From contig RIAY01000007.1 in NCBI GenBank assembly GCA_003833075.1, forward strand, positions 1-64,000: a stretch of 64,000 nt of DNA. Reading direction: 5' to 3'. Source of the stretch: Muribaculaceae bacterium Isolate-036 (Harlan) (GTDB lineage Bacteria > Bacteroidota > Bacteroidia > Bacteroidales > Muribaculaceae). The notes under the pieces were generated by a model. That model saw only the letters and a list, made by a program, of their open reading frames with translations, was not told the origin of the DNA and did not search any database. The translations under genes and the position numbers were made by a program. Shown here in pieces: positions 8,317-30,891 of the stretch (its first letter is position 1; each line of letters begins with the position of its first letter).

Positions 8317-8328
8317 AGAGATCCAATT

Positions 8329-11590: not shown

Positions 11591-11597
11591 GCCAATG

Positions 11598-11828: not shown

Positions 11829-12228
11829 ACTCATTTCTACCGGAGAAATAGTGGAGGTGTATGCTGATATGGATTATCATGGCAATACTACATGGCTTGA
11901 TACATCAACAAAGACTGAATATTATCCTTCTGAATTAGAATTTCTACCAGAAGATTCAAAGCCTATATCTCCAGTAGTTTCTCTTTCCCAGTTCACTGAC
12001 GAAGAGTTGAGAAGTGAATTAAAACGTCGAGAAAAAGAACGTCGTTCACAATTCCCTCCCAATATCCGGTGCCATGATTGCAAGCATTGCGTGGAAGGAC
12101 TCGCGTTCAAACATCAGTACATTCCAACAACCGTTTGTCGAATGAATCCTAAGCCATCTCAGGGGCCGGATAGATACTATTCAACAGTATGCTCTCTTAG
12201 AGCGTGTGATAAATTTGAAACCAAATAA
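11812..12228 (+). CDS. Cys-rich hypothetical protein (~138 aa from the internal ATG)
   Basis: CHDCKHC...C...C motifs. Confidence 0.4.
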   Translation: MARKAKLISTGEIVEVYADMDYHGNTTWLDTSTKTEYYPSELEFLPEDSKPISPVVSLSQFTDEELRSELKRREKERRSQFPPNIRCHDCKHCVEGLAFKHQYIPTTVCRMNPKPSQGPDRYYSTVCSLRACDKFETK

Positions 12229-12230
12229 CT

Positions 12231-12488
12231 ATGGCAGCAAAAGATTATGTGTTCTGTAAAGCGGCATTGACTGGTCACATTTATCTGACAAAGAAAATAA
12301 AGTCTAAAGATGTGATGAGTCAGGATAGAAGGCTGGTAGAGGATCATGAGGCAATCGGATGTTTTGAAGCATATCTTAGACGATATTGTGAAGAGAATGG
12401 TACCGATACACTCAATGTCACCAACTCCAAAGGAGAAGTTCTTTTTACAGCAACTCTAAAAAAGCAAGAAGATGAAACTGAAAACTAA
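12231..12488 (+). CDS. hypothetical small protein (85 aa)
   Basis: ORF 3 nt after the previous stop. Confidence 0.35.
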   Translation: MAAKDYVFCKAALTGHIYLTKKIKSKDVMSQDRRLVEDHEAIGCFEAYLRRYCEENGTDTLNVTNSKGEVLFTATLKKQEDETEN

Positions 12489-12801
12489 AATCGCTCAAAT
12501 TCTGAGAAGATGGGCTGAAAAGTTAGAGCCTATCTTTCCATACGATGTGAAGCATATCCCATATCTAAAAGAAGAGAGGCACGATATCCAGAAAATGATG
12601 TCGCAGCACTCAATACCCAGATATGTATATGATCGAGATCCAAACCGCATGAATAGGCTGGTTCGTGAAGATATTGCTTCTGGGATAGCCAAGGGATTAG
12701 ATGCTAATGGCCTCATTAAGATAACGATTGAGCCTACTCCAGAAAATGTGAATTACATCGGAGAACTATATATTATTGACTTTCATAAGGATTCAATATA
12801 A
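12472..12801 (+). CDS. hypothetical protein (109 aa)
   Basis: ORF. Confidence 0.4.
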   Translation: MKLKTKIAQILRRWAEKLEPIFPYDVKHIPYLKEERHDIQKMMSQHSIPRYVYDRDPNRMNRLVREDIASGIAKGLDANGLIKITIEPTPENVNYIGELYIIDFHKDSI

Positions 12802-12850
12802 TCAAAATCTCAATGCCTTGGGCGGCTTAATAAAACCCACAAGAAACAAT

Positions 12851-13309
12851 ATGGAGATAATCAAAATCGAAAAATTCCCATCAATCGAAGGCGTGGCTAA
12901 AGACTTCGCCAAAAGAGCAGTTGAAGGCTGTAAGGGCAGTCTTGATTTAGAAAAGTGCGAAAAGCAGATCGCATTTGCTGTTGACTATGGTCACGAAAAT
13001 GCTTGGCAGCTGCTTGACACTATGGACTTCGGCGATGCAATCAGAGCACTCAAAGCCGGTGCTAAAGTGGCCCGTAAGGGCTGGAACGGTAAGGGGATGT
13101 TCCTCTGGCTCAAACCAGCAGCCACCGTCAAATCCGAATGGTGTAAAGATCCTATGCTGAAAAAGCTGGCCGATGACAATGGCGGCACTATCGAGGCTGC
13201 TGGCACTATCTGCATGTTCACTGCCCAGCACCAGATACTCACCGGCTGGCTTGCTTCCCAGACTGATGTGCTTGCTGAGGACTGGGTAATCGTTTCAGAA
13301 GCTGAATGA
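12851..13309 (+). CDS. DUF2829-like protein (phage-associated family), ~152 aa
   Basis: Motif KVARKGWNGKGMFLWL, which I recall as typical of the DUF2829 family. Confidence 0.45.
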   Translation: MEIIKIEKFPSIEGVAKDFAKRAVEGCKGSLDLEKCEKQIAFAVDYGHENAWQLLDTMDFGDAIRALKAGAKVARKGWNGKGMFLWLKPAATVKSEWCKDPMLKKLADDNGGTIEAAGTICMFTAQHQILTGWLASQTDVLAEDWVIVSEAE

Positions 13310-13755: not shown

Positions 13756-15018
13756 TTAGAACTTCATCGCTGCCAACACCTTATTCCGGCTGGCAGTGTC
13801 ACCTTGATTGTTGTAGTAGATCTTCTCACAGTTCTCTATACTGGTGCCCATCATATTCGACACATATATGACCGGCACACCCTTACTTATATAATGTGTT
13901 ATCGCTGTATGCCGGAAAGTGTAGGTGTGCAGCGGAAAAGAACAACCCAGTGCCTTACCGACTTTTTTGAGCCAGTTGTTCAAATTCCCTATAAAGTGTT
14001 TTATGTCACCATTATTGGTGGTCTGAGTTTTCAACTTCTCCTTGTTGCGTATCGGAAATATATAGCCGTCCTTGGCTAATCTTTTCCACCGTAACATAAT
14101 GCGGTCAAGCTCTGTATTGATTGGAACAGAGCAGGGTACCGCTTGCTTCTCAGCAATCTTTCTGCGATTAAAGACAAAGTGGCTTATACCACCTATCTTT
14201 TTGATGTCAGAATACCGAAGTGCTATCGCGTCACAAGCTGACTGGCCGGTATAAAGAATGAAGAGACAGAAATCCCGGTACAACTCATTGAGTGGAGATT
14301 TTGATATTGAAGATAAGTCCAGGGTGGTAAACTTCTGGCATTGTTCTTCAGTCAGTGTATGAAACTTCTGAGAGCTGGAACTGGGTTTCTTGAACCAGTT
14401 GCATTTTTTGAAGTCCTCAGCTTTCAGATACCCCTCTTTGTCGGCTTTCATAATCAATGAGTGCAGGATCTTTGAGACATAACACATTCCCGTGCCTTTA
14501 CGCGCGCGCTCGACCCATTCAAAGACGTTGTTCACGAAAGCGGCATTAATCTCAGTAATTAGGAGCTTGGAGTATTTAATCTTCTTAGCCTTGCAGAACT
14601 CCTGAAGTCTCTTGTCACATTTCAGGTAGTTCTCAAAACTGCCCTTTCCTGAGCCGTCTGCGTGCTTGTTTTTGTTGAGCTGGTCAACTACATACTGGAT
14701 GAACTCTGAGACCGTAAGAGCCTTCCTGACGGGCTCTGTGGCTGTTTCCATAGCAGCGATCATACCAAAAACACTGCCGGTCCAGTTTATAGCCATTTCA
14801 TCGAACTTCTGTCGGAACTGAACGAGTATGGCATTGTTCTCATCGCTGAAGGGGCAGCTTGGGATAAAGAGCTGCTTCTTCTGGTTCCAGTGTTTCTTCT
14901 GGATGGCTCCTTTCAGCATTTTGGTGACGTTGATAAACTTCGTCTCGCCGTCCTGATAGAGCCTCAATCTGAGTTGGAACCCTTTGGTTCCGAACATCTG
15001 ATAGTTGATTGTAATCAT
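13756..15018 (-). CDS. tyrosine recombinase/integrase of block A (420 aa)
   Basis: C-terminal HTYTFRHTAITH...G....Y motif order R..H..R..Y. It ends the small-gene block, and its 5' end faces the tRNA-derived repeat. Confidence 0.75.
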   Translation of the reverse strand: MITINYQMFGTKGFQLRLRLYQDGETKFINVTKMLKGAIQKKHWNQKKQLFIPSCPFSDENNAILVQFRQKFDEMAINWTGSVFGMIAAMETATEPVRKALTVSEFIQYVVDQLNKNKHADGSGKGSFENYLKCDKRLQEFCKAKKIKYSKLLITEINAAFVNNVFEWVERARKGTGMCYVSKILHSLIMKADKEGYLKAEDFKKCNWFKKPSSSSQKFHTLTEEQCQKFTTLDLSSISKSPLNELYRDFCLFILYTGQSACDAIALRYSDIKKIGGISHFVFNRRKIAEKQAVPCSVPINTELDRIMLRWKRLAKDGYIFPIRNKEKLKTQTTNNGDIKHFIGNLNNWLKKVGKALGCSFPLHTYTFRHTAITHYISKGVPVIYVSNMMGTSIENCEKIYYNNQGDTASRNKVLAAMKF

Positions 15019-15228: not shown

Positions 15229-15241
15229 GTGGTGCCACCAG
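15229..15241. repeat. 13-bp direct repeat GTGGTGCCACCAG, identical to the 3' end of tRNA-Phe at 30891-30903. Candidate att core and junction between blocks A and B.
   Basis: Exact 13/13 match seen in the sequence. Confidence 0.55.
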
Positions 15242-15361
15242 CACCTGAGTTTCTGAATGAATACGAATGAATTTGAATGGCTTGTTTAGGCAAAATACTG
15301 AATAATAGTGCAATATGAACTTTGATGAATTTTGGGAATTTTCAGATTTATTCAAAAAACG

Positions 15362-15383
15362 TGGTGACCTGCGTGGTGACCCG
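15362..15383 (+). promoter_or_regulatory. two direct GTGGTGACC repeats (candidate integrase arm-type sites) upstream of the integrase
   Basis: CGTGGTGACCTGCGTGGTGACCC. The same 8-mer recurs four times at the other element end (30579-30834). Confidence 0.4.
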
Positions 15384-15485
15384 ACTTGACAAAATGCGGT
15401 TTGGGTTGTTATATTTGCAGAACCAAAGTGGCTGATTGTGAATAACTGTGAACGCCACCACTCAGAAATTTATAACATCGAAGAT

Positions 15486-16949
15486 ATGACAAAAACACCC
15501 TCTCCGAAAAAATTGACCCCGTTTCATGTCCGAACCAAGGATTTGAAGAAGGATACCGCGACTCTCTTTATCCGTATCCATACCCGCAAGGTTGATGTGC
15601 TGATTTCGACCATGCTTCAGGTTGAGGTTGCCGACTGGCAGAAGGCTACGACATCACCCCGCGCATGGCTGGCGCATCAGAAGAAGAATTATCAGCTTCA
15701 TGCCAAGCTCACGCAGATTGAGGGCATAGTCAAGGCCCATCTCGCAAAGGTGAACTTTGACCGCGAGGCTCTCGACATGGATGTGCGCTATATCTCAGAG
15801 CCGGAGAAAGTGGACGCTGAACGTCGGGCGATGGAGGAAGCCGCCGAGGCTGAGCGTAAGGCTATCGCCAAACGTGAGGCGGCGAAAGAAAAAGCCCGCA
15901 AGAAAGCCGAGGAAAAGAAACGTATCGAGGATGAGAAGAACCGCCTTATCTGGCCGTTCCTCGTTCAGTTTGTCGATGACATCAAGAGCGGGGCGCGCAA
16001 GATTGGCAGTGACGACTATGCACCCGGCACATGCAAGGCATGGAAAAGTTTTATTGGTGTCTATGAAGGCTTCGACACATTGCACAAGTTCGGATGGGCA
16101 GACATCGACCGTGCGTTTGTGTCACGCTACATCAACTACTTACAGAAGCACGGCTACATGGCGAAGGTGGTCAACAAGCATCTGACAAACCTGAAGGCTC
16201 TTATCAATGCCGCATTCGTTGACGGCGTACATGATAATCAGAGAGCTGCCGCGCTCATTGTCAAGAAGAAGATTGAAGACCGCGACAAGGCTGTCGAGAT
16301 TTATCTCACCGAGGAGGAGTTGCAGGCTCTCTATGAAATGCCTCTGACCGGGAAGAAAGAACACATCCGCGATGTTTTTCTCATTGGCTGCTACACCTGT
16401 CAGCGTGTAAGCGATTACAACAACCTCAATGTTGACAATTTTGAGACCACCCGCAAGGGGACGCGCATCATCCGTCTTGTGCAGCAGAAGACCAAGACCG
16501 AGGTAACAATCCCCATTCTCAACGAGAACCTTATCACCATCTGCGAGAAGTACGGCTACAATATTCCGAAAGCCAACGAGCAGGTGCTGAACCGCTACAT
16601 CAAGGATATTCTCAAAGACCTGTCGGAGCAGTTGCCGTCACTGAAAGAGAAAGTGCCGACCAAGCTCACCATGAAGCAGAAGGAGGCGTTGAGAAAAGAG
16701 AAGAAGGAACCGGAGACCGACCTCAACGGCAACGTGATTGTGCCGCGCTATGAGTGTGTGACAAGCCACACCGCCCGACGCACCGGCATCACGAATATGT
16801 ACCTCAGCCACAGGTACACCATCTTCCAGATGATGCACGTCAGCGGTCATAAGACCCAAAAGACCTTCATGGACTACATCAAGCTATCCTCCGAGGAGAT
16901 AGCCGACGAAATTGCCGCCATGTCCAAGAAAGAGAATGATATGTGGTAA
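15486..16949 (+). CDS. tyrosine recombinase/integrase of element B (the ORF track starts at GTG 15438; ATG 15486 is more likely)
   Basis: C-terminal HTARRT...HVSGH...Y catalytic motif order. A TAtaTTTG -7-like motif sits at ~15411. Confidence 0.75.
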   Translation: MTKTPSPKKLTPFHVRTKDLKKDTATLFIRIHTRKVDVLISTMLQVEVADWQKATTSPRAWLAHQKKNYQLHAKLTQIEGIVKAHLAKVNFDREALDMDVRYISEPEKVDAERRAMEEAAEAERKAIAKREAAKEKARKKAEEKKRIEDEKNRLIWPFLVQFVDDIKSGARKIGSDDYAPGTCKAWKSFIGVYEGFDTLHKFGWADIDRAFVSRYINYLQKHGYMAKVVNKHLTNLKALINAAFVDGVHDNQRAAALIVKKKIEDRDKAVEIYLTEEELQALYEMPLTGKKEHIRDVFLIGCYTCQRVSDYNNLNVDNFETTRKGTRIIRLVQQKTKTEVTIPILNENLITICEKYGYNIPKANEQVLNRYIKDILKDLSEQLPSLKEKVPTKLTMKQKEALRKEKKEPETDLNGNVIVPRYECVTSHTARRTGITNMYLSHRYTIFQMMHVSGHKTQKTFMDYIKLSSEEIADEIAAMSKKENDMW

Positions 16950-17078
16950 ACCCTTGGCTCAACTCCTCTCAAGTGGCAAAATAGCCGCTTTCTGGGGTGG
17001 TGAGCCTTTAATCCTCTCACTAAAAGCGGATAATTCAGCATAATTTTGTATCTTTGCAAAAAAATAATTGCGCAATAA

Positions 17079-17873
17079 ATGAACAATCTATATACTAAAG
17101 ATACGCTCAAGCACTATCTCCATAATCCTCTTGGAATATTGGGGATGTTTATTACCCTCTGTTATCTAATTGCGGGCATTGTCTTTTCAATAGGATTAGG
17201 TCAGCTGCAAGGAGATTCTGAAAGATTGCCATTCATATATTTCATTATAGGTTTCCCCTTAGTTATTTTGATCGCGTTTTTATTTTTGGTTATATGTCAC
17301 CACGAAAAGCTTTATAGCCCACAAGATTTTTCAGATGAAGCAAATTTTGTAAAATTAACCGGTAAAGAGAGCACTGAAAAACTTAGGAAGGAGGCAGTAG
17401 AAATAATTTCCCATGGGAACAATGTCCTCAGAGAAACAAAAAATGTTACAGAAAAAGTCCATGCATTGATGCCAATAGTAGAAAATGTAGAGAAATTAGC
17501 CGTAAAAAAAATAGAGAGTATCTATGGCATTCAATTTCAAAGGGAAGTTCAGTATGTTTTAAACCGCCATCGATATATATTTGATGCTTTTGCACAAAAG
17601 GATGAGATTTTTTATATTTTTGAATGCAAATATGTAAGAAATGCCATCTCTCGTGAAAGGTTGAGGAGTGTGTTAGAGCAAATGTTACGATATAAACAGA
17701 TGTTCAAAGATCAAGGTATTGCAACTAAATTTATTGTTGCATTTGTATTAGATGAATTTACCGAAAACCGTCAGCACGAAATTATGGATTTTTATTCATC
17801 AGTTGCACCTGAAATGACAGTATATGTATTTGATTTCAACAAATTAAAGGTAGAATTCTCTACAAAATCCTGA
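17079..17873 (+). CDS. membrane protein (2 TM) with a C-terminal PD-(D/E)xK nuclease-like motif
   Basis: TM helices near the N-terminus. C-terminal FDAF...IFYIFECKY (D-x15-ExK). A TAtcTTTG promoter motif sits at ~17051. Confidence 0.5.
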   Translation: MNNLYTKDTLKHYLHNPLGILGMFITLCYLIAGIVFSIGLGQLQGDSERLPFIYFIIGFPLVILIAFLFLVICHHEKLYSPQDFSDEANFVKLTGKESTEKLRKEAVEIISHGNNVLRETKNVTEKVHALMPIVENVEKLAVKKIESIYGIQFQREVQYVLNRHRYIFDAFAQKDEIFYIFECKYVRNAISRERLRSVLEQMLRYKQMFKDQGIATKFIVAFVLDEFTENRQHEIMDFYSSVAPEMTVYVFDFNKLKVEFSTKS

Positions 17874-17875
17874 AA

Positions 17876-19558
17876 ATGCCCAGATATACAATAGAACAAC
17901 TTCAACATATGCGTGAGTCGGAAGACCACGTTGAGTTCAAAAAAGGGGAACACGGAAACGTATCCTATAACGGTGCGGGTAAAGACAAACCACAGGAGCG
18001 TCGCCGGTGTATCCTCGGATATGTCGCTGCTCTCTGTAACGAGGGTGGCGGTCGTATCGTCATAGGTATGCACGATGCCTATCCTCATAAGGTTATCGGC
18101 ACAAAACAGTGTCTTAACGGTATCGGGCAACTTGAGAGTGACATATATCGGGATATGGGCATACGCCCCGACATCTACGAATTGTATGAGGACGAGGAAG
18201 CAAAATCCGGGCGAGTGCTTGTAATCGAGGTTCCTCCGCATCCGATTGGCAAGGTATTCAAATTCGAGGACGTAGCACTTATGCGTGTGGGAGAGGAATT
18301 GAAGCCAATGGATGACAAGACTTTCATCTCCATCATTCAGGAGCAGGAGCCTGATTTCTCGGAGCACATCTGCGAAGGTATCACCATTGATGACCTGGAC
18401 AAAGAGGCAATCAAAGTGATGAAGGAAAGATACGCTGAAAAGCAGAAGAATCCAACATTTACATCATTGTCCGATGCACAGGCATTAAGCGACCTTAGGC
18501 TGATAATTGGAGATAAGGTTACGAATGCCGCGCTACTGCTGGTCGGCAAGGAAGAAGTGATTGAGCGTTTCTATCCTCAGGCAAAAGTAATGCTTGAATA
18601 TCGCAATACAGAAAGCCAGATACACTTTGACAACAGAAAATCTTTCGGTCAGCCGTTCTTCCTTCTGATTGACGAGCTTTGGGAGGAAATAAATCGACGT
18701 AACGGTTCCGTGCCGGTAAGAAAAGGTCCGTACATATTCGACATTCCTTTCTTCAACGAGGACGTTATACGAGAGATTGTTAATAACGCTTTTTCTCATA
18801 GAGATTATAGATTTGGCAGTGAGATTGTAATCAAGCAATATCCTCTAAAATTCACAATCATCAATGGTGGCGGTTTTCCTCATGGCGTGTCAGTCGATAA
18901 TCTTCTGACTACTCCGAGTATGCCACGAAACAGGCTCATCGCTGATGTTCTGTCCAAGACCGGTATCGTAGAACGCTCCGGCCAAGGAGTTGACAAGATA
19001 TTTCTATACACGCTTTCAGAAGGGAAGCCTGCTCCGGATTACTCAAAGACTGACGAGTTCAATGTTACAGCGACATTATCAGCCACTGTGAAGGATACCG
19101 GATTCGCCCTTTATGTGCAGGATATTCAGGATGGACTGCCGGATGACAAGAAACTTACGGTGTTTGAGGTGCTTGCTCTATGTGAAATACGGGATGGAGC
19201 AAAACGACCATCTGACAAGGAGATAGCCTTAAAGCTTGAAAAACTTGGATTCATAGAGAAGCATGGCAAGACCAACGCACAATACTACATTCTACCCCGC
19301 AAATATTATGAACTGAGTGGTGATTTGGCAGCCTATTCGTTAAAGACCGATTGGGACATCAATCAGGTATGGGCTGTACTTCATCCTTTTATGGTCAAAT
19401 ATGGCAAGGCAAAGCGGGCTGATATAAATACCCTTATTGGAACCCATTTGTCGGAAAAGCAACTTCGTAATTTTATTGAGGAGTTGAAACAGCAGGGAAA
19501 ATTGAGAGCAGAAGGAGGAAGAGGGTATGTAGTGTATTATCTTGGAGAGAACGCTTAA
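17876..19558 (+). CDS. AlbA_2 (Schlafen-like) DNA-binding domain plus HATPase_c_4 (RecG C-terminal-like) putative regulator (560 aa)
   Basis: N-terminal Y..E..E.E.VEFK...H motif typical of the divergent-AAA/AlbA_2 family. Starts 3 nt after the upstream stop. Confidence 0.55.
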   Translation: MPRYTIEQLQHMRESEDHVEFKKGEHGNVSYNGAGKDKPQERRRCILGYVAALCNEGGGRIVIGMHDAYPHKVIGTKQCLNGIGQLESDIYRDMGIRPDIYELYEDEEAKSGRVLVIEVPPHPIGKVFKFEDVALMRVGEELKPMDDKTFISIIQEQEPDFSEHICEGITIDDLDKEAIKVMKERYAEKQKNPTFTSLSDAQALSDLRLIIGDKVTNAALLLVGKEEVIERFYPQAKVMLEYRNTESQIHFDNRKSFGQPFFLLIDELWEEINRRNGSVPVRKGPYIFDIPFFNEDVIREIVNNAFSHRDYRFGSEIVIKQYPLKFTIINGGGFPHGVSVDNLLTTPSMPRNRLIADVLSKTGIVERSGQGVDKIFLYTLSEGKPAPDYSKTDEFNVTATLSATVKDTGFALYVQDIQDGLPDDKKLTVFEVLALCEIRDGAKRPSDKEIALKLEKLGFIEKHGKTNAQYYILPRKYYELSGDLAAYSLKTDWDINQVWAVLHPFMVKYGKAKRADINTLIGTHLSEKQLRNFIEELKQQGKLRAEGGRGYVVYYLGENA

Positions 19559-19769
19559 AGGGCGAACTAAAGGGCGAACTTTTACGCCTTATAAGCCATT
19601 TCAACTTGAAATCATCCTCTTATCATGTTGATAATTAGAACTAAACATTAACCGTCAAAGGGCGAACTAAAGGGCAAAAGGATTATAAGCATATTTTAGG
19701 AGACAAAGGGTACTCAGAAAGGAAAAGAAGGGAGCCAGAACGCAATAACGGGAACCATGCCCGGAATAA

Positions 19770-19802
19770 TTTGGAAAGTCTGATAAGGTGGTATTATCTT
19801 TG
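19770..19802 (+). promoter_or_regulatory. Bacteroides sigma-A-type promoter candidate (TTTG, 21 nt spacer, TAtcTTTG)
   Basis: Motifs seen at ~19770 and ~19795. Confidence 0.4.
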
Positions 19803-19888
19803 CCAGAGAATTGTGAGGCGACCATTGCTATATCGGTTATATATACTGAGATACATGTACAACCTTGTGCTATATCCGGCGGAAAATA

Positions 19889-19921
19889 TTTGGCGGGATT
19901 GAAAATTACACTTTATCTTTG
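19889..19921 (+). promoter_or_regulatory. second Bacteroides-type promoter candidate (TTTG, 21 nt spacer, TAtcTTTG)
   Basis: Motifs seen at ~19889 and ~19914. It points rightward into the GC-rich noncoding region. Confidence 0.4.
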
Positions 19922-20039
19922 CCGCTGTAAGGATGAAAAGAAAGTCCGGAACCAGGAGTAGGGGCTAATGCCCGGTCATGCACTACTTTTGGCTATGGAT
20001 GATATTTTTCGCTGAATCGTGAACTTTTTTGGACAAAGC

Positions 20040-21110
20040 TTTGTTAGGAAAGTTGCGGTGGCAAATCTCGCGACCATAGCGGAGCGTCAGATTGCTCTGC
20101 CGTGACGGTTGCGCCCTTATACACCGCAGACACAACCCGCAGCCCAAGAGTGGGCTGACTCCCTATGAGCCGACCCCGAAGGGTCGGATCCGATGCACAA
20201 CACTCGGAGGTGTGTGCCTGAATTTCGCAGCCGGATGCGCAATATCTTGCGAACAAATCGGTGTGCGGGTACTTACCCGAATCTTACACCGACACCGGTG
20301 CCCATATTCAGGCGTGACACTTGTGGACGCTATCGGCACACACCTACATCATACACACCCGATAGCCGACAATGTCAACCGCCGACGGGAGATTGTGCCG
20401 ATTTGGTAATCTCGGAAAATTTTGTTATCTTTATGTAACGATTGAAGGCAGCGCACGCCCGAAGCGACACGTTCAGCTTTATAGACAGGAACAGGAACGA
20501 TGCTCCCCGACGGATGCCATGCCCGATATTGACACTGTAACAATAATAACGAGGTACCTGATCAGAAGACCGGACTCAGAATCCGGAACCACTATGAAAA
20601 GCCTGCTGTTGAATGCGGAACGAACCGCAACGGTTTAACCCGATATCAACTCGCACTAAGGAAGCGATGCTCAACGGATTAAATGCGTGGAACAACGGCA
20701 GAAGAAGAAAGAACGGCACAGCCATAAACTGTCATAGAGCCTATACGAGCTGAATTTTGCGACAGCCATAACTGTGCCCGTACAGAATCTGTACGTCAAA
20801 AACAATCAATTAAAAAGAAGAAGAAATGCGTATGCCTTACCTTATTGCAAAGTAAGACACAACCGCCTTTGTATCTGCCCCGTATAAGGAACAGATGCCC
20901 TCATGTCGTTGCCTTTCGGCGCGATATGGAAAAGGGTGAACCACGCCCTTTGCCGACCCTGACAGGACGGCAGCAACAACCGTCGGCTTTAGCGAAACAT
21001 AGCCGACAGCCCTTCCTATGTCCTTTCGGGGACACGTCACCGCAGCCTCTTTCGTCGCCGGGGCTGTGGGTGATGCAAGTTACTTGGCGATATAACTTTA
21101 ATTTCATAAT
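20040..21110 (+). ncRNA. candidate long structured RNA or structured leader (GC-rich, noncoding) upstream of the xis-like/primase/mob genes
   Basis: About 1.1 kb without any ORF longer than 105 aa. It is visibly GC-rich, roughly 50-60% by eye against ~40% in the flanks. It has many short GC hairpins (for example CGACCCcgaaGGGTCG, CCGGActcagaaTCCGG, GACGGcagcaacaaCCGTC) and two upstream promoters. Confidence 0.3.
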
Positions 21111-21118
21111 CCCCCCAG

Positions 21119-21448
21119 ATGAAATTGAATCTTTTTGACCTTCTTCAGGCGTCGGCACTCGACCCTGACTCCCCCGATATTATCCTCAACGTCCGCCTCT
21201 CTGACCTCCATCAGCTTGTGGTGGACACAATCGAAGCCACCCGCGAGCGTCTGCTCCCCCTCTACATGGAGGCCGAGTCGGACAGGTCAATCACCAAGAA
21301 AGAGGTTGCCGAGCGGCTCGGCGTCTGCGAGACCACGGTCTACAACATGACCAAGGACGGCAGACTCCACCCTTTCAAGGTGAACGGCAGTACCCGCTAC
21401 AGCCTGCGGGAAGTCAACTCCATTATCAACCCCTCTAACGATGACTGA
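21119..21448 (+). CDS. excisionase/AlpA-like helix-turn-helix DNA-binding protein (109 aa)
   Basis: KKEVAERLGVCETTVYNMTKDGRL HTH. 8-nt overlap with the next gene. Confidence 0.6.
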   Translation: MKLNLFDLLQASALDPDSPDIILNVRLSDLHQLVVDTIEATRERLLPLYMEAESDRSITKKEVAERLGVCETTVYNMTKDGRLHPFKVNGSTRYSLREVNSIINPSNDD

Positions 21449-22670
21449 GCTTATGGAAGACGTAATAGTTACACCTCCCGCCGACGACCGCTTCGAGCGC
21501 ATCGGTACCACTTACTACAAGATTGTCCGCCAGCCCAACGCTGCCGGACAGCTCATCGAGCGCAGCATACCGTGGACTATCGAGGCAATCCGTCAGGACT
21601 ACGGCAAGGACTTCCTTGCCAACGTGCCCAAGTACGACGGCTTCTGCTGTGTTCCCTCGCATCTGGACTATAAGCCGGTTGTCGGCAGTTTCAAGAACAA
21701 GTATTCGCCGTTGAGCCATATTCCCGCCGATGGAGAATGGCCATGCATCGAATCGCTTGTGCGCCATATCTTCGGCGAACAGTACGACCTCGGTCTCGAC
21801 TACCTGCAAATACTTTACACCATACCGTTGCAGAAACTTCCGATACTGCTGCTGGTGTCGGAGGAACGGAACACCGGCAAATCCACCTTCCTCAATTTCC
21901 TCAAACTGCTCTTTGAGGCTAATGTCACGTTCAACACCAACGAGAACTTCCGCAGCCAGTTTAACGATGATTGGAACGGCAAGCTGGTAATCGTAGTGGA
22001 CGAGGTGTTGCTCAACAAGCGAGAGGATTCCGAGCGTCTGAAAAACCTCAGCACCACCTACAACTACAAGATGGAGGCCAAAGGACGCGACCGCGAGGAG
22101 GTGAGTTTCTTCGCCAAGTTCGTACTATGCTCCAACAACGAGTATCTCCCCGTGGTCATCGACCCCGGCGAGACCCGCTACTGGGTGCGGAAGGTTCCGA
22201 GGCTTACCACGGACGATACCACGTTTCTGGAGAAAATCCGCTACGAGATACCGGCATTTCTCCATGCCCTGACCTATCGGCAGCTGATAACCGCCGAGGA
22301 AAGCCGCATGTGGTTCAATCCCGCGCTGCTCGACACCGAGGCATTGCAGAAAATCATCCGCGCCAACCGCAACCGTGTGGAGCTGGAGCTTGCCGAGCTG
22401 CTGACCGAGATAATGGACTCGCGCAAAATCGACGAGGTGGATTTCTGCTTCAACGACATCCTGAGTCTATTCGGCTACCGTCAAGTCAAGGCTGACCGTA
22501 GCCAGCTCCGGAAGGTGGTGCAGGACTGCTGGAAGCTCAGACCTGCCTCCAACTCGTTCTGCTACACGACCTACACCGTCGGGATGTTCCTCAACGAAGA
22601 AACATACGTTGAGACCCGCCGTTGCGGACGATACTACACCGTCACCCGTCAGATGTTGGAAAATTTATAA
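21441..22670 (+). CDS. primase/D5-P4-type NTPase-like replication protein (PrmN1-like), 409 aa
   Basis: Walker A ERNTGKST, Walker B LVIVVDEV. The NBU gene order is int, xis-like, prm, mob. Confidence 0.55.
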   Translation: MTELMEDVIVTPPADDRFERIGTTYYKIVRQPNAAGQLIERSIPWTIEAIRQDYGKDFLANVPKYDGFCCVPSHLDYKPVVGSFKNKYSPLSHIPADGEWPCIESLVRHIFGEQYDLGLDYLQILYTIPLQKLPILLLVSEERNTGKSTFLNFLKLLFEANVTFNTNENFRSQFNDDWNGKLVIVVDEVLLNKREDSERLKNLSTTYNYKMEAKGRDREEVSFFAKFVLCSNNEYLPVVIDPGETRYWVRKVPRLTTDDTTFLEKIRYEIPAFLHALTYRQLITAEESRMWFNPALLDTEALQKIIRANRNRVELELAELLTEIMDSRKIDEVDFCFNDILSLFGYRQVKADRSQLRKVVQDCWKLRPASNSFCYTTYTVGMFLNEETYVETRRCGRYYTVTRQMLENL

Positions 22671-22979
22671 TTTTTTCTCGTTGAAATTTGATGAACTGAT
22701 GAAAGGAGAGACAGTCTATTGTTTTTCAGTGCCTTTTCTTCTCATCGGTTATTCATCAACGCTTCATCAAAGGATGAAAGGCAATGAAAAGAAAATATAG
22801 TGGCACTGAGAGAAAACCTCAATTTTCTTTTCCCTCGCCGAAATTTTCTTCTCACCGCCCATATAATAACGATGAAACAATGATGAACAGATAACGCACT
22901 GATATGATTAAATATACCTGTCCGATTCATCAGTTTATCAAATTCAACACCTCACCCGGTCGCCGAGACTTTTATCTCG

Positions 22980-23906
22980 GTGTCCACAATTCACAATGAT
23001 ATGGCAAAATCAACCAAATCCACCAAAGCATCAGGTTTTGATGCGGATAAATACCTTGAGGAACTGGAAGAGGAGTCCCGAAAGGAAAAAGAAGCTGCAA
23101 AGAAAAAGGAAGCTCGCATTATGGAATATTCAATTCCATGGAACATGACAGATAGAGAGCCTCCGCTCCCGGAAATGAAGTTGAACGCATGGCGTTTCAG
23201 ATGGGAGCCCGAGAATCTGGAAGAGTTCATACCGAAATATGGCGAAGATTGCAAGAGGATAATTGCGGAAATCAACGCCGAAAAGAAAAGACGACTCGAC
23301 ACGATTCCGGACGTAAGGCGACCGGGCTACTCGGTGACAGGGAATAAGCTCGATACTGATGAGCCAGCCAATCAACCGGATGCACAGGCAAGCAGTCAAC
23401 CGGAACATCAGTCAACCAAGACAACGGAGACCGAGATACCGGACGATGCGGTGCAACCGCAACCTCAGTCTACCGGTACACCGGTTACACCGTCCGCAGC
23501 TTCCGAGCCGGAGGTGAAAGATGTATTGCCTCCGTCATCGCCGATCACCGATGCTCCCGACGTTCAGAACTCCGACACGGACACAGCTTCTGTTCCGCCA
23601 CAAGCTGAGTCGCGGCCAAACTCCGCCACCGTGGAACAATTGAAAAAGTCCCGCGTCAGTGCCAGGAAGGTCGATGCCGATTTCGAGGAATTGTCCCGAA
23701 GGTATCTCCACGTCGTCAGTCTCGGCGAGAAGAAACCGGTGTTCCTCCCTCTCGAACTCCGCAACGCTTTGGATACTCTCGCCCGGTTGAGTGGTGTACC
23801 GAATCTGGCACCGTCTCACATTGTCATCAACATTCTTAAAGCGTTCTTTGACGATAACCGCGAACTTATCAACTGCAAACTCTCACGTGAGAAATTAAGA
23901 ATCTGA
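22980..23906 (+). CDS. DUF3408-like mobile-element protein with a low-complexity P/S/T/Q-rich linker (308 aa)
   Basis: Conserved-looking C-terminal region and a long low-complexity middle. Lies upstream of the mob genes. Confidence 0.4.
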   Translation: MSTIHNDMAKSTKSTKASGFDADKYLEELEEESRKEKEAAKKKEARIMEYSIPWNMTDREPPLPEMKLNAWRFRWEPENLEEFIPKYGEDCKRIIAEINAEKKRRLDTIPDVRRPGYSVTGNKLDTDEPANQPDAQASSQPEHQSTKTTETEIPDDAVQPQPQSTGTPVTPSAASEPEVKDVLPPSSPITDAPDVQNSDTDTASVPPQAESRPNSATVEQLKKSRVSARKVDADFEELSRRYLHVVSLGEKKPVFLPLELRNALDTLARLSGVPNLAPSHIVINILKAFFDDNRELINCKLSREKLRI

Positions 23907-24105
23907 AATCTACGTGATTCAGGGCGCGGCGGTATCCATCCGCAGGGCTAATGGAGGGGCTAAGCGAGGTTAGATTTTTGTGATACAAAAATCGTCGCAA
24001 CCATGTTGCTCCCCTCGCCACCCTCCATTACACCGGGTGGACCGGTACACCGGTGTAACGAATCCGCTTTGCCCCTCCATTTTCAAACCCTTAATCCCCC
24101 CACGC
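23905..24105. promoter_or_regulatory. candidate oriT region: long inverted repeat TAATGGAGGGG...CCCCTCGCCACCCTCCATTA plus inner IR ACACCGG...CCGGTGT
   Basis: Seen in the sequence immediately upstream of the MobC-like and relaxase genes. Confidence 0.35.
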
Positions 24106-24107
24106 CA

Positions 24108-24491
24108 ATGAAACCGAAATCCCCGACCCGCAAATCGAATCTCAGGGCAGGACACCGCAACGGTCGTCCATCCCTGCCCGAAGAGGAGCGTCAGTCCTAC
24201 GTCCGGCACACGCGATACAACGAGGCTGAAAACACCCTCCTGCTTGCCAATGTCAAGCGCACGGGAATGAAAAATGTCAGCGAATATATACGATCGGTGA
24301 CGCTCAATCCTCACATTGTTCCACGACTCGATGAATCAGAAATGAGAATCGCCCGCAATCTCTCCGGCATGAGCAACAATTTCAACCAGCTCCTTCGCCT
24401 CTGCCATCAGCGCGGACTCGATGCCATGGCCCGCGATGTGCAATACTGCCTCAGCCAATTCCGCGGACTTTTCGCAAAATTAAGTTCCTAA
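24108..24491 (+). CDS. MobC-like mobilization (relaxosome accessory) protein. The ORF track start at 24003 is probably noncoding oriT.
   Basis: R.S...EE......R.T..E...L...AK..G...S.Y.R pattern of Bacteroides MobA/MobC-type proteins. 7-nt gap to the relaxase. Confidence 0.55.
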   Translation: MKPKSPTRKSNLRAGHRNGRPSLPEEERQSYVRHTRYNEAENTLLLANVKRTGMKNVSEYIRSVTLNPHIVPRLDESEMRIARNLSGMSNNFNQLLRLCHQRGLDAMARDVQYCLSQFRGLFAKLSS

Positions 24492-24497
24492 TTTCCT

Positions 24498-25967
24498 ATG
24501 ATAGCATATATAATAAGCGGCTCAGGCTTTGGCGGATGTGTCGATTATGTCACCCGCCGCAAGCTCGAAGAGAAGCTCTATAAGGAGCAGTCGAAAGGTC
24601 TGAAAGCCGATGAAAGAAAATATGAACCCGCGAAGCGGCTCGCGAGTGGGCTTGAAGCGCATGTCAGCGGAGCTGGTGCGCGGTGGCAAAGCCATCAAGA
24701 CCCACCGCAGCGCAACAAAGGAGAGGATATAATCGACCATCTTTCCAAAGACTGGAAACTCCTGTCTTCCTCCGGCGACATAAGGATATATGAAGGCCGC
24801 AAGGCTATGGCTGACGACATCGCCCGACCGTCACGACAACGTAAGCCTATAAAAGACCCGGTCGGTCATATATCACTCGACTTTCATCCAGACGATGCTC
24901 CGAAGATGACGGACGAACTTATGACCGAGGTGGCGCAGGAATATATGAGGCAGATGGGGCTGACCAATACCCCGTACATAGTGGTACGACATTTTGACAA
25001 GGCGCATCCGCACTGTCATATAGTTTTCAGCCGGGTTGATTATGACGGCAAGATTCTGACTCAGACCACCAACTTCAAGAAGAATGAGCGCGTCTGCAAG
25101 GCTCTCAATCTGAAACACCGTCTTACGCAGGGAAAGAGCAAACTTAATACAGATGTTTCAAAACTGCGGGGAAAAGATAAAATCCGTTACCCACTTGTCC
25201 ACAATATAGCCGGAGTGTACATCCGTCCGGAGATTCAGGACTGGAACTCGTTTCTCATTGCTCTTAAGCAACAGGGTATAAGGGTCAAGGAAAAGACCGG
25301 CCAATCAGGGAAAACGAATCTGTATTACTGCACAGGCAGACATGAATTCTGGTATAAGAAACTCGATTCCTTTTTCAGCCGCGAGAATCTTGAATTGAAA
25401 TTCAAGGCTCGTCGAGAGAAACAGCAAGCGGCAAAGACTCAACCCGGAACCGCACCACAGCCTAAACCGCAACGGCAGTCACAGCCTAAATCAAAGCAGC
25501 CGGAGCCTATTGTTATCCCGCCATTGTCGGATATCGTATGCGGCGTAAGGATTGACCGACTAAAGCAGCAAGCCTATCAGGAAGGCAAGTTCATCAGCAT
25601 CGGAATCTGTGACCCCGGAGGCGTTGTGCCAATCAATCATTGGATTTGGTACGATTTCGACAAACGAGAACCCGTAATGAGCCGTACATATCCCTACGAC
25701 CACAAAATCCCCGAAGCCTTCCAGCGACAGTTGGCGTCTAAGCAATCTCCCGCATCATCATCGCAGGGCACCGGAATCCGATTCTCATCGCCTTCTCTCG
25801 GTGGAAACATTCCTGAAGAACAAGGTTTCGCTCACGACAGAGGAATGCCGGACGACTTCAAGCACTTCCTTGAATTGCACCCCGGCATGAGCTTTGAGGA
25901 AGCCAAACGCCGCTTTAAGGACGAGCAAAAAGCCAAGCAACAACGCAAAGGTCCTAAACTGCACTAA
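24498..25967 (+). CDS. relaxase (MobA/VirD2-family mobilization nuclease) with a Pro/Gln-rich linker, 489 aa
   Basis: HISLDFHPDD...AHPHCHIVFSRVD histidine triad region. Confidence 0.7.
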   Translation: MIAYIISGSGFGGCVDYVTRRKLEEKLYKEQSKGLKADERKYEPAKRLASGLEAHVSGAGARWQSHQDPPQRNKGEDIIDHLSKDWKLLSSSGDIRIYEGRKAMADDIARPSRQRKPIKDPVGHISLDFHPDDAPKMTDELMTEVAQEYMRQMGLTNTPYIVVRHFDKAHPHCHIVFSRVDYDGKILTQTTNFKKNERVCKALNLKHRLTQGKSKLNTDVSKLRGKDKIRYPLVHNIAGVYIRPEIQDWNSFLIALKQQGIRVKEKTGQSGKTNLYYCTGRHEFWYKKLDSFFSRENLELKFKARREKQQAAKTQPGTAPQPKPQRQSQPKSKQPEPIVIPPLSDIVCGVRIDRLKQQAYQEGKFISIGICDPGGVVPINHWIWYDFDKREPVMSRTYPYDHKIPEAFQRQLASKQSPASSSQGTGIRFSSPSLGGNIPEEQGFAHDRGMPDDFKHFLELHPGMSFEEAKRRFKDEQKAKQQRKGPKLH

Positions 25968-25969
25968 TC

Positions 25970-26026
25970 AAAAATCCACCGAGAGAAGATCGTTTCTTTC
26001 GGTGGATTAACTTTGTTTTTTTGTGT
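25970..26026 (+). terminator. terminator-like hairpin (TCCACCGAG...TCGGTGGA) followed by a T-run
   Basis: Seen after the relaxase stop. Confidence 0.4.
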
Positions 26027-26210
26027 AATAGTTCGACGAAATAATTTCGTTCTTAGCTCATAAAGTCTGTCCAATATCTATTTTTCTTTGCCTACAAGCC
26101 ATTGCATACTCATATTCAAAGCCATTGCTTTGATACTATTTGGTGCCTCTGATTAAATTAGTTAAAATTATCAATGACAAATGCCTGTCCAATATTTGAT
26201 GTCTGATTAT

Positions 26211-26852
26211 TTATAATTTAGACGAATTTTTGCTCTCCCTTTTTTCTTTGTTTCGTAGGTATCTAGTAGCCAACTCATGATATGATGAGTCTGATTTACT
26301 TAAAAATAATTTGCGTGTGTCGCTGTCGATATCATATTCATCAATTATATCGAAAGTGTTTTGGAGCATTTTAATCTTGACATTGACTCGATCTATTCGT
26401 GACGATATAACCCCCTGCCTTGAAGCCATATCTTCAATTACTGAAAAATCGAGCACTATTTCTTTAAATAGTTTAAGTGCTTCAGGGAGATTTGTCAGAG
26501 ACAGTTGTCTTTGACATTTTTGTATCAGGCTATGGACGAAAACAAGCATTTCTGAAAGTTTTTGCCCTTCAGATGTTTGTGGGAGTTTATCCCTACGCAA
26601 ATCCCTAATCTTATACCAAGTTTTTTTATCACGGATATCATTAGCCACGGCTTCCCCCTCATTGTCTACGCTGGTTACATGCCAGGCACAACAAAATGAG
26701 CAGTAGTAGCTTCTGGACGGGACTTTCCCAGACAAAGAGGCTATTTCATCTCGATTGAACTTGATGAAATTATCTGCCTTTGCTTGAGTTTCAAAGAGCA
26801 TCTTTGGATGTCTGCATCCAATGCAGTATACACGGTTCTTCGTTGGCTTCAT
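26211..26852 (-). CDS. N-terminal Cys4-type zinc-finger protein of unknown function (213 aa)
   Basis: CIGC...(27)...CSFCCAWH. ATGA overlap with the upstream glycosylase-fusion gene. Confidence 0.45.
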   Translation of the reverse strand: MKPTKNRVYCIGCRHPKMLFETQAKADNFIKFNRDEIASLSGKVPSRSYYCSFCCAWHVTSVDNEGEAVANDIRDKKTWYKIRDLRRDKLPQTSEGQKLSEMLVFVHSLIQKCQRQLSLTNLPEALKLFKEIVLDFSVIEDMASRQGVISSRIDRVNVKIKMLQNTFDIIDEYDIDSDTRKLFLSKSDSSYHELATRYLRNKEKRESKNSSKL

Positions 26853-27640
26853 TGTTTTAGAATCGTTTCCCAGCGGTCTATTTTAGCGTCTAGCGTAAAA
26901 TGGGTGTTTGTTGAACTGGAACTTGGGAGAGAAACGACACGTATATGTTTCGGTAGTTCATCTATATTTATATATGTTCTAAAATAAGTTGAAGCTTTGT
27001 CTCCGTTTAGACCGATGACACGAATATTTGGATGCTTTGAAATAAACCCTAATATATCATTGATAGTTAAGTTTTTGATGTCTGAATCGAGACTACTGAT
27101 TCTTTCTGCTGATTTGAGCACATCCCACAATGCGATATGGTGTTTCTCCAAAAATCGTAGCCTGTCTTCGTAAGCGAGTGGTATACTTTCGTCAAACAGA
27201 CTTGACATGATTTTCCAGAATTGATTACCCTGATTCGCATAGTAACATTGTGTCTCCAATGATACTTTGCCCGGCAATGTCCCTAAGATCAGAAATTCCG
27301 ATTCTGAATCGGCGATGGGCGCAAGACCCTCTGTGACAACGCTGGATGTCAGGACTTTTGTCATGATGACTTCTGTCTCTGACGTATGTGCCGGGGTGGA
27401 AAGCGATGTTTTTTTACAATTTGAATGTCGGATATACCATGATTGTTTTTTACCGCCGGGTTGCTCTGCATTAGGAATTTTGCCATCTCGCAGGTGTCTG
27501 CGTAAAGTTTTTCCTCCGTCGGAAGGCAAAGCCCCGTTTTTAGCTAAATAGGCGGCGACTTCACTGGGCCCCACATGATTTAATCTGTTTGATTCGAGGT
27601 ATTCATCAATCAGATATATGATTCTGTTTATGTCTGCCAT
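26849..27640 (-). CDS. fusion protein: unknown N-terminal domain (~110 aa) plus UDG-superfamily DNA glycosylase domain (Mug/TDG or deoxyinosine-glycosylase-like)
   Basis: C-terminal LILGTLPGKVSL...YYANQGNQFWKIM...ALWDV...SLDSDI...IGLNGDKA matches the GxxPG / YxNxxNxFW motifs of UDG families. Confidence 0.5.
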   Translation of the reverse strand: MADINRIIYLIDEYLESNRLNHVGPSEVAAYLAKNGALPSDGGKTLRRHLRDGKIPNAEQPGGKKQSWYIRHSNCKKTSLSTPAHTSETEVIMTKVLTSSVVTEGLAPIADSESEFLILGTLPGKVSLETQCYYANQGNQFWKIMSSLFDESIPLAYEDRLRFLEKHHIALWDVLKSAERISSLDSDIKNLTINDILGFISKHPNIRVIGLNGDKASTYFRTYINIDELPKHIRVVSLPSSSSTNTHFTLDAKIDRWETILKQ

Positions 27641-27681
27641 AGCTGAAATATTTGTTTTACGGTATTATCATTTTTATGGGG

Positions 27682-28791
27682 TTATTTAAAAATTCGGTCT
27701 TTATAAGGCGTAGATTCAACGCCATTTACTTGAAGTTTACGAACAAGTCCGTCAAGTAGAGCAAGACAGATTCTCTTAAAGATTGCAGTGTTGCCAACCC
27801 ATTTTACAAGGGTCGGACTAACAGCATAGTAGGTGCGTATGAAAGCGCGCCCATACCAAGTTTCGGCGAGTGTGTAATCGCGGAATCTGCGTAGTGTCCA
27901 AACTTCGGGACAATCGTAAGAGCCATATACCGCTGTTGCAACATAGCACGGTCCGGAAGATGGATTTGATATATGCTCCTCATTAAACGTGTCAAGATTT
28001 CCGCTTGGAAGACCCTGCTTGATTCTATTAAGTATAGCGCGAAATTCCGTAACGGATTCTTCGTTAAGATTCGATTTAAATACGTTAAAACGAGCGTTAA
28101 CAGCTTGCGTGAAATTAATCCAGTTTTTTGCCGCAAATCCTACAAGGCAAGAAAGTTCCTCATGTGCGACTTTATCATCCGGGATCACATAGCGTAAACT
28201 CAGCAACAATTCATATTGGCTCATTATAAAAGCAAATATTTCATCTGAATCGGCTGTAAGTTCTGATGCTTTAAATGGATTCGATATACAATTCAGTTCA
28301 TATATCTGCTTTAAAGCCCCTGTGTTTTGTAATTGCTCGGTAAACGACTGAAGGTTTACGTTGAGAACTGTTATATAGAAGCCGTATACGTCTATTTCCA
28401 ATTCTCCATTGGATTTTTCGATAGCCTTTTTTCCGGCAGATATTATCTCTGTGACTCTAAGGTTGTCAATACTTGAGGATAATCCGATGGCTTTCATCTT
28501 AATAAACCATGCCTGGGCATTGTCGCAGTCAATTTCAAGAATACGTTTAACATATGACTCCGCTTCATCAACATTTAAACTGTCAATGGCATTCTGAGCA
28601 AGAGACAACAAGTTTGGAACTTTGTCCGATTGATCAATCTTGACTTTCCCTTCAATGTTGACAACTCCTTCGACCATCATTTTCTTGGCTTCTTCAACGG
28701 AGTATTTGGTTCCGCATGACTGACATACGAATACACCATCTTGTTTAAGGATATTTGTGCTTCCGCACATTTCACAGGTAAGTGGTTTCAT
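27682..28791 (-). CDS. zinc-ribbon protein with a helical middle and a conserved Cys-containing C-terminal module (YdjG-like partner of SPFH), 369 aa
   Basis: N-terminal CEMCG...CQSCG. C-terminal CYVATAVYGSYDCPEVWTLRRFRD. 4-nt overlap with the membrane gene. Confidence 0.5.
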   Translation of the reverse strand: MKPLTCEMCGSTNILKQDGVFVCQSCGTKYSVEEAKKMMVEGVVNIEGKVKIDQSDKVPNLLSLAQNAIDSLNVDEAESYVKRILEIDCDNAQAWFIKMKAIGLSSSIDNLRVTEIISAGKKAIEKSNGELEIDVYGFYITVLNVNLQSFTEQLQNTGALKQIYELNCISNPFKASELTADSDEIFAFIMSQYELLLSLRYVIPDDKVAHEELSCLVGFAAKNWINFTQAVNARFNVFKSNLNEESVTEFRAILNRIKQGLPSGNLDTFNEEHISNPSSGPCYVATAVYGSYDCPEVWTLRRFRDYTLAETWYGRAFIRTYYAVSPTLVKWVGNTAIFKRICLALLDGLVRKLQVNGVESTPYKDRIFK

Positions 28792-29165: not shown

Positions 29166-29166
29166 A

Positions 29167-30834: not shown

Positions 30835-30856
30835 TGGAGGGGTATGATTGAATAAA

Positions 30857-30890: not shown

Positions 30891-30891
30891 G

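Follow-up and report, generated by a model that had tools for sequence, protein, structure and literature searches.

A large, probably RNA-structured gene-free region precedes the HTH_17 gene in a family of Bacteroidales mobilizable elements

We analyzed a 64,000-nucleotide (nt) stretch of contig RIAY01000007.1 from Muribaculaceae bacterium Isolate-036 (Harlan), hereafter the window, which carries a mobilizable element of 15.66 kb (15229-30903) inserted in a tRNA-Phe gene. A 13-bp direct repeat, GTGGTGCCACCAG, found at 15229-15241 and 30891-30903, marks the element boundaries, and its right-hand copy is the 3' end of the tRNA-Phe gene (30892-30964, - strand). From the left, the element encodes a tyrosine integrase (15438-16949) and two cargo genes of low guanine plus cytosine (GC) content, which are followed by a gap of 1560 nt (19559-21118) that extends from the stop codon of an AlbA_2/HATPase_c_4 gene (17876-19558) to the start of an HTH_17 gene, referred to as hth:

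21119-21448, + strand: HTH_17 (excisionase/AlpA-like) gene, the first gene downstream of the gap (Pfam PF12728, E=3e-11)

The hth gene overlaps a DUF5906 helicase gene (21441-22670), after which come DUF3408, NikA-like and relaxase genes, and the right side of the element holds further cargo on the opposite strand (UDG-like, SPFH/GYF). The analysis described below indicates that the gap very probably encodes a conserved structured RNA on the + strand, and we see about an even chance that this RNA is a structured 5' leader of ~0.7-1.3 kb belonging to the HTH_17/helicase/mobilization operon. This is in line with a sequence-only reading of the window, which had proposed a large structured RNA or structured leader of the excision/replication/mobilization operon and which is supported by our Rfam, covariation and coding checks.

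The longest open reading frame (ORF) in the 1560-nt gap has 105 amino acids (20092-20409, TTG start), as the sequence-only reading had stated when it described the stretch as ORF-free. The same reading had presented the gap as a GC-rich island, and here its figures stood while the island did not: positions 20040-21110 have 50.9% GC against 39.6% in the host flank (1-13000), but the adjacent element genes (21119-25967) have 51.4%, the window between 32 and 58 kb ~50%, and the whole window 46%. Because its GC content equals that of the neighbouring element genes, the gap stands out only against host DNA, and GC marks the element backbone. The third-position excess ratio was 1.0-1.6 across the gap, compared with 3-29 in the hth and helicase genes. 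Per-site diversity in the gap (0.14-0.24) was somewhat below that of third codon positions of the neighbouring genes (~0.25-0.32).

The gap was compared with its counterparts in ten near-identical copies and 31 genomic relatives (Muribaculaceae, Bacteroides muris, a Prevotellaceae metagenome-assembled genome, and others). Carriers of the region include the strains Duncaniella muris DSM 103720 (locus L014) and Bacteroides muris NM69_E16B (locus L012). Every relative that was examined has a homologous gene-free region of 0.9-1.4 kb immediately 5' of its HTH_17 gene, and in each of them ~1.5 kb 5' of hth lacked a long open frame. In relatives with a helicase 85-98% identical to that of the window, the gap is 73-91% identical to the window sequence from ~19720-19830 up to the hth start, and among clade-A relatives the gap stays similar while the genes that separate it from the integrase vary. 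A profile hidden Markov model (HMM) of the region also detected relatives with a helicase only 70-73% identical, as well as loci reached through HTH_17 homologues (58-67% identical; down to 52% overall), some of which carry DUF3987 and a Mob_Pre relaxase in place of DUF5906 and Relaxase. At one locus, L168, the region is present and there is no helicase gene. Across these different helicases, relaxases and cargo, HTH_17 is the sole gene that always follows the region, and among the loci examined the region was never found apart from an HTH_17 gene, with public collections lying outside the covariance-model searches. The exact HTH_17 protein of the window is indexed in 456 blocks of a public assembly collection, and a sister HTH_17 protein in 179 blocks. 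The conservation common to all lineages begins at GAACUUUUU(U)GAAC (~20021), and in some clade-B members (L032, L034, L035 and L037) cargo adjoins the conserved core at about this same window position. BLASTN searches with the region against plasmid and phage collections gave no match. Pattern scans produced two kinds of candidate that were rejected: none of 120 viral-contig loci recovered with a gapped 18-base pattern matched the profile HMM of the region (nhmmer, E<=1e-3), and they were therefore treated as chance, and a single JGI metagenome locus recovered with a 23-base pattern lies inside coding DNA and is likewise a chance match.

A large sister group of elements is inserted in tRNA-Gln, and in these the conserved region extends from ~160 nt past the tRNA to hth. 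They lack the middle part of the region (~window 20275-20525), that is, the 3' two-thirds of the multi-branch domain, the promoter-like motif P3 and the Y:Z helix (all listed below), so that the 5' core is joined straight to the 3' half. From this direct junction we argue that the two halves work as one unit. The insertion point of the sister elements is the 3' end of tRNA-Gln(CTG) (L162, 2368-2560; likewise L164, L171 and L175). Directly past this tRNA there is a terminator-like hairpin, perfectly paired and with compensatory changes from one locus to another, together with a tandem TTTGCACAACA repeat, which may be an integrase or excisionase arm site.

The sequence-only reading had described the region as dense in short GC helices, and these were borne out by covariation, with compensatory base changes in homologous elements well above controls (two- to ten-fold over the slid controls described next). 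RNAalifold on 20 sequences predicted 237 pairs in ~40 helices, with 96.1% of the cells paired. Changes on both sides of a pair were found in 40 of these pairs, compared with 16.1±2.6 after column shuffling and 12-26 in slid controls, in which the 3' partners were moved by 1-3 columns, and compensated cells over the whole region numbered 93 (13-34 in the slid versions). Covariance models were built for three segments, R1 (20932-21096), R2 (20826-20933) and R3 (20050-20193). R1, which covers the 3' domain, found every lineage (E 8e-60 to 4e-15); in 25 distinct sequences 92.3% of its cells were paired, with 13 compensated pairs (0-5 when slid) and 44 compensated cells (0-16 when slid), and its 13-pair terminal hairpin, H40, contains 8 covarying pairs. 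R3, the 5' core, had 95% of its cells paired and 9 compensated pairs (0-5 when slid), and found clade A, L038, L021, L041 and, weakly, L168. With default filters R2 did not find the distant lineages, the sequences being too diverged; with filters off, its matches at distant loci were individually weak (E 0.35-9), collinear, and exactly adjoining the R1 matches. Single-sequence minimum-energy folds of the 110 nt located 5' of the 3' domain gave one and the same set of three hairpins in 13 lineages whose sequences are unrelated, with z-scores of -3.1 to -6.4 in 8 of 10 lineages. When all lineages were aligned over the whole domain with MAFFT and folded with RNAalifold, most helices were lost through misalignment.

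The comparison also assigns the fold to one strand. Read as the + strand, G·U outnumbered A·C by 127 to 21 in R1, 89 to 15 in R3 and 69 to 21 in the third model alignment, counts that are somewhat biased because the alignments were fitted to models already holding G·U pairs. The consensus energy was -219.9 kcal/mol on the + strand and -179.6 kcal/mol on the - strand. Two long-range complementarities that we considered, 20115/20869 (21 nt) and 20795/21123 (17 nt), are apparently not kept among relatives, as judged by inspection of the alignment. The predicted structure comprises the following parts:

19925-20049, + strand: 5' end of the predicted transcript, with a variable hairpin (~19940-19975), H2 (20008-20012/20019-20023), a U-run and H3 (20025-20034/20043-20051)
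20050-20193, + strand: 5' core domain, H4-H8, with near-invariant ACCAUAGCGGAGC...GCUCUGCCGUGACGG (model R3)
20195-20398, + strand: multi-branch domain closed by H9 (20195-20200/20393-20398) and H10 (20203-20212/20380-20389) and holding H11-H16
20466-20505, + strand: Y:Z helix, in which GACACGUUC (20466-20474) pairs with GGAACGAUGCUC (20494-20505)
20570-20586, + strand: hairpin CCGGA/UCCGG, its stem kept and its loop differing, in all lineages
20605-20699, + strand: three-way junction H23-H26, with a near-invariant loop CUAAGGAAGCGAUGCUC (20657-20673)
20715-20778, + strand: two ACAGCCAUAA(A)CUGU mini-hairpins (20718, 20762) enclosed by H27 (20715-20719/20774-20778), clade A only
20826-20933, + strand: three consecutive hairpins H31, H32/33 and H34 (model R2)
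20932-21096, + strand: 3' domain with H35, H36, H37, H39 (UUCG loop) and the 13-pair H40, then an invariant GGCGAU (model R1)
21055-21090, + strand: possible pseudoknot between the H40 loop UCGCCG (21055-21060) and UGGCGA (21085-21090), ~28 nt before the start codon

In the multi-branch domain, H10, H11, H13, H14 and H16 have 2-3 pairs each with compensatory change (RNAalifold, 20 sequences). The block at 20605-20699 is the best conserved across distant lineages (56-92% identity to the window); H23, H24 and H25 contain compensatory pairs in clade A, and clade B, L162 and L164 have recognisable counterparts of the helices of this three-way junction that differ in sequence. The Y:Z helix occurs in every lineage that has the segment (9 pairs in 21 sequences), has one G-C pair replaced by A-U, a compensatory change, in L041 and L168, and is mutually exclusive with the clade-A helix H18 (20434-20448/20470-20483). 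Repeats resembling GGAA(N)GAUGC are found at 20494, 20660 and 20888, the last two being called Z-like below. Both segments of the pseudoknot are invariant or nearly so in all lineages, position 21085 being U or C, either of which pairs with G21060; there is no true covariation, and we put the pseudoknot forward as a suggestion only. An insert of ~105 nt is present between two ACAGCCATAACTGT copies (window ~20760) in L022-L030, L040, L169 and distant lineages, and has a covarying hairpin of its own (CGCCG/CGGCG, CACCG/CGGTG or CGCTT/GGGCG).

Upstream of the structured part and within it we mapped the following candidate control sites:

19770-19802, + strand: P1, promoter motif TTTG-N21-TATCTTTG, exact motif
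19826-19888, no strand assigned: operator-like DNA block of 63 bp, between P1 and P2 and just 5' of the P2 -33 box
19889-19921, + strand: P2, promoter motif TTTG-N21-TATCTTTG, with an expected transcription start at ~19928-19932
20402-20433, + strand: P3, internal promoter-like motif TTTGG-N19-TATCTTTA, whose last -7 base is A, not G

P1 and P2 are the two TTTG-N21-TAtcTTTG motifs of the sequence-only reading, and they lie exactly where it had placed them. The motif occurs only 4 times in the 64 kb on both strands together, a count that is not significant alone (14 of 100 shuffles reach it), and the case for promoters rests therefore on conservation. The -33 and -7 boxes of P2 are nearly invariant in the 20 aligned relatives of clade A, and P2 is also present in L021, L023, L033, L038, L168 and L169. 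P1 is kept 113-120 nt 5' of P2 in L011, L012, L014, L018, L021, L033, L038 and L168, of which L021, L033, L038 and L168 are distant lineages, and is missing from relatives in which the cargo junction cuts into this stretch. The block between the two contains TGCTATATC twice (19827, 19869) and an invariant TGTACAACCTTG. Its column identity to the window sequence is 80-92% in clade A and it is recognisable in L021, L023, L033, L038 and L169, and partly in L168, a pattern of sequence conservation consistent with a binding site for a regulator. P3 has two invariant boxes and a spacer of fixed length and variable sequence in all lineages except the tRNA-Gln elements, and may act as a promoter. A TTTG...TAnnTTTG motif at L162:2298 and L164:2274 was rejected as promoter of the RNA because it belongs to the tRNA-Gln gene that hosts the insertion.

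Consensus scans of the + strand found no TAnnTTTG (-7) box in 19991-21118 and no terminator-like site in 19400-21300. Since there is no -7 box in 19991-21118, any hth mRNA would start at least ~680 nt upstream and carry the 3' ~680 nt of the region as 5' untranslated part. On the - strand, H31 together with the complement of an A-rich linker (20795-20825) scores as an intrinsic terminator (20831-20861); this site is confined to clade A and could stop antisense transcription.

In all 26+ loci with enough upstream sequence, the distance from the end of the 3' domain to the HTH_17 start is 15-30 nt. This position at the hth start, with no + strand terminator and no intervening promoter, supports a leader rather than a separate gene. 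We infer the transcription, the regulatory role and the ligand or partner of such a leader as follows. Transcription would start at the Bacteroides-type promoters P1 and P2, which lie behind the conserved operator-like block; the internal P3 would probably be a further start site. Folding of the RNA would then give the 5' core, the multi-branch domain, the three-way junction and the 3' hairpin array, the last of which would end ~20-30 nt before the start codon. This fold, or a factor binding it, would set how much transcription and translation reach the excision and replication genes, the factor could be a protein or an RNA, encoded by the element, by the host or by a helper conjugative element, and such control would gate excision and transfer. 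The alternative pairings Y:Z and H18, the Z-like repeats at 20660 and 20888, and the pseudoknot near the start codon might be the features that switch.

Several observations weigh against a leader of this kind. We found no clear expression platform in the region, neither a terminator nor a conserved helix sequestering the start codon, and the 17-nt complementarity between 20795-20811 and hth codons 2-7 does not hold in clade-A relatives with a differing hth 5' coding sequence. P1 and P2 are missing in L032, L034, L035 and L037, where cargo adjoins the core. The tRNA-Gln elements have neither P2 nor P3 nor any consensus promoter of the region's own; the sole consensus promoter upstream is that of the tRNA, and it is followed by the terminator-like hairpin. 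Sliding-window folding z-scores of the region (-1.5 to -4) are no better than those of flanking coding DNA, and the case for structure rests therefore on the comparative evidence. Finally, a conserved structure of 1.2 kb is, to our knowledge, far beyond the need of any known bacterial cis-regulator.

This size is also what makes it possible, if only tentatively so, that the region is a stable large noncoding RNA standing alone, in the manner of GOLLD, ROOL or OLE, with a part in excision, replication, transfer or anti-defence that it would play in trans or as a ribonucleoprotein. Its place 5' of hth would then reflect shared transcription and later processing, not hth regulation. With 0.9-1.25 kb the region exceeds any known leader in size and complexity (~40 helices, multi-branch domains, near-invariant loops such as the one in the three-way junction), elements that differ in helicase and relaxase modules all retain it, and in many lineages it has a promoter module of its own with the operator-like block. 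A separate RNA of this sort is harder to reconcile with a 3' end that has no terminator, with a 3' domain that always adjoins the hth start, and with the constant company of the HTH_17 gene among the loci examined. It is, on the other hand, quite unlikely that the gap holds the remains of a protein gene or several clustered small ORFs; we consider this the remotest of the readings. ORFs of 81-105 amino acids do exist in it, and a weak third-position excess (ratio 1.6) was found at 20499-20678, but neither frames nor start codons are kept across lineages: six-frame peptide matches between lineages fall in all frames, the frame changing from lineage to lineage, and no Pfam family is matched in six frames at E<=0.1. 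The absence of codon periodicity, of a kept frame and of a Pfam family means that no degraded gene is detectable; such a gene would, according to the sequence-only reading, have refuted it. The ORF-free state is itself kept across all lineages. One small ORF candidate, at 20533-20680, was rejected because the window sequence offers it no start codon and other clade-A members are open in a different frame.

The fold could also act as DNA. One reading, which we regard as improbable, is that it works as single-stranded DNA, as an sso- or ssi-type origin or priming site or a Frpo-type promoter, when the single strand enters the recipient. The strand-specific folding inside a mobilizable element, the presence of the region with three different mobilization modules, and the tRNA-Gln elements without a recognisable promoter before it would all fit. 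ssoA/ssoU, ssi and Frpo elements act as DNA, have 150-330 nt, and share with the region that they are noncoding, orientation-specific, hairpin-rich and located in mobilizable DNA. Compared with them, the region is 3-8 times larger, with a conserved structured span of ~0.9 kb in the tRNA-Gln elements and ~1.1-1.2 kb here; conventional double-strand promoter motifs point into it, ~13% of its pairs are G·U(T), which is typical of RNA, and its 3' end keeps a fixed position relative to the hth start codon. In F and RP4 the relaxase genes enter last, and by analogy with these plasmids the transferred strand here would be the - strand, opposite to the folding one. Looking for an RP4-type nick motif, we found no ATCCTG in 22671-24002, only small inverted repeats. 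A still smaller probability goes to a region that is mainly double-stranded DNA for control or replication (promoters, operators, sites for HTH_17, integrase or helicase, or an origin), in which RNA structure is secondary. It could draw on the three promoter-like motifs and the operator-like block, on a palindromic ACAG...CTGT motif in two copies, on the GGAA(N)GAUGC-like repeats and on the helicase gene downstream; yet double-stranded sites yield neither compensatory changes nor a 3-6:1 asymmetry of G·U over A·C, and the region is kept in L168, an element without helicase. The sequence-only reading had offered an origin with iterons, on the basis of a repeat ACAGCCATAA(A)CTGT that is indeed present twice (20718 and 20762). 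This proposal did not hold when iterons were taken as at least 3 phased direct repeats of ~17-22 bp that relatives share: the palindromic motif, of 14-15 nt, occurs only twice, at a distance of 44 nt, and is confined to clade A. The motif is absent from clade B, L021, L041 and L162, and in other clade-A members its two copies are split by the 105-nt insert, the insertion site of which they flank.

As the sequence-only reading had anticipated, the RNA resembles no known one. A search of the window with Rfam 15, whose families include GOLLD, ROOL, OLE, HEARO, group I and II introns, RNase P, tmRNA, 6S and SRP, gave only tRNA-Phe at gathering score; the region had no match even at E<=10, and 19400-21500 gave only three chance-level matches (E 0.95-3). 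The RNA regions of L162, L032, L041 and L168 likewise gave none at E<=1, and we found no description of this RNA in the literature. In kind, it is similar to large RNAs of mobile elements and to long regulatory leaders. GOLLD, ROOL, OLE and HEARO, several of which are linked to prophages or mobile elements, are like it in being very large, in having many helices and a structure conserved above sequence, in lying on mobile DNA, and in having a function that is not readable from context. They differ in that no homology is detectable with Rfam 15 and in that the region described here is placed as a 5' leader of the HTH_17 gene without a terminator of its own, is longer (up to ~1.2 kb) and is found, as sampled, in Bacteroidales integrative mobilizable elements only.

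Satellite phage P4 has its promoters in tandem, encodes an HTH regulator of the AlpA/Vis type, and carries a long leader before the primase-helicase operon whose expression decides its life cycle. In its CI RNA immunity, a processed RNA of ~70 nt pairs with two complementary sites of the leader and terminates transcription. The leader of the P4 left operon is an organisational analogue in an integrative element with tandem promoters, an HTH regulator and a long leader; here, in contrast, no small pairing RNA was recognised, the only hint being the alternative of Y:Z and H18 together with the Z-like repeats, and the structured part is more than 10 times larger. Riboswitches, T-boxes and put/EAR antitermination RNAs are also structured 5' untranslated RNAs on the same strand right before the operon that they control, but they have 50-300 nt and a defined expression platform, whereas the region is 4-20 times larger and none was identified. 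The excision region of NBU1 (intN1-orf2-orf2x-orf3-prmN1-mobN1) belongs to the same type of element and is likened to the present one by gene order, not sequence, the order in both being integrase, HTH excisionase, primase/helicase and relaxase, while the relaxase and helicase families may differ. Excision of NBU1 requires "a large region" besides the integrase and the directionality factor (review PMC5704250).

Several further features of the window were noted around the region. The slot between the integrase and the RNA (17079-19558 here; L168, 510-2111; L169, 162-2042) is a variable cargo site, which holds a 264-amino-acid protein and AlbA_2/HATPase_c_4 in the window (GC 0.33 and 0.45), Peptidase_M78 and DUF4411 in L168, and AAA_15/21 and RloB in L169; the cargo looks defence-like in all three. 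AAAGGGCGAACT occurs four times around the AlbA_2 stop codon (~19557, 19569, 19657 and 19669) as part of the cargo; it is not kept in relatives with other cargo, and L031 has similar GGGCGAA repeats 5' of its region. The right-hand cargo (26211-30270, - strand, GC ~0.40) encodes a UDG-superfamily protein, an SPFH/Band-7 protein with a GYF_2 domain, and three proteins without Pfam match. At the left end of the element (15380-15417), CGTGGTGACC is found twice in tandem, just 5' of the TATATTTG -7 box that precedes the integrase gene, and these copies may be arm-type or operator sites. Just outside that end lies a second tyrosine integrase gene (13756-15018, - strand, 420 amino acids), a hint that this site also holds a second element, in tandem or as a remnant. 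The stretch between 32000 and 58000 of the window, with ~50% GC and mostly - strand genes, unlike the host flank of 40% GC, may be another mobile element.

It is conceivable, though we consider it doubtful, that the RNA is more than a leader, namely a functional RNA of the element life cycle, such as an immunity or commitment RNA in the style of P4, or a scaffold or guide working with the integrase, the HTH_17 factor or the helicase. If so, integrative mobilizable elements would have a large catalytic or architectural RNA of their own, of a new class, which could explain the large ORF-poor regions needed for NBU-type excision. If confirmed, the structured RNA class itself would be new and, with 0.9-1.2 kb, among the largest in bacteria outside ribosomal RNA, and its many lineages with heavy covariation make it a rich target for work on RNA structure. 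Its carriers are an abundant family of gut Bacteroidales mobilizable elements that move variable, often defence-like cargo between Muribaculaceae, Bacteroides and Prevotellaceae. How NBU-like elements sense when to move is poorly understood beyond their dependence on regulators of helper elements, and an RNA located at the decision point for excision, replication and mobilization would offer a testable handle on this question.

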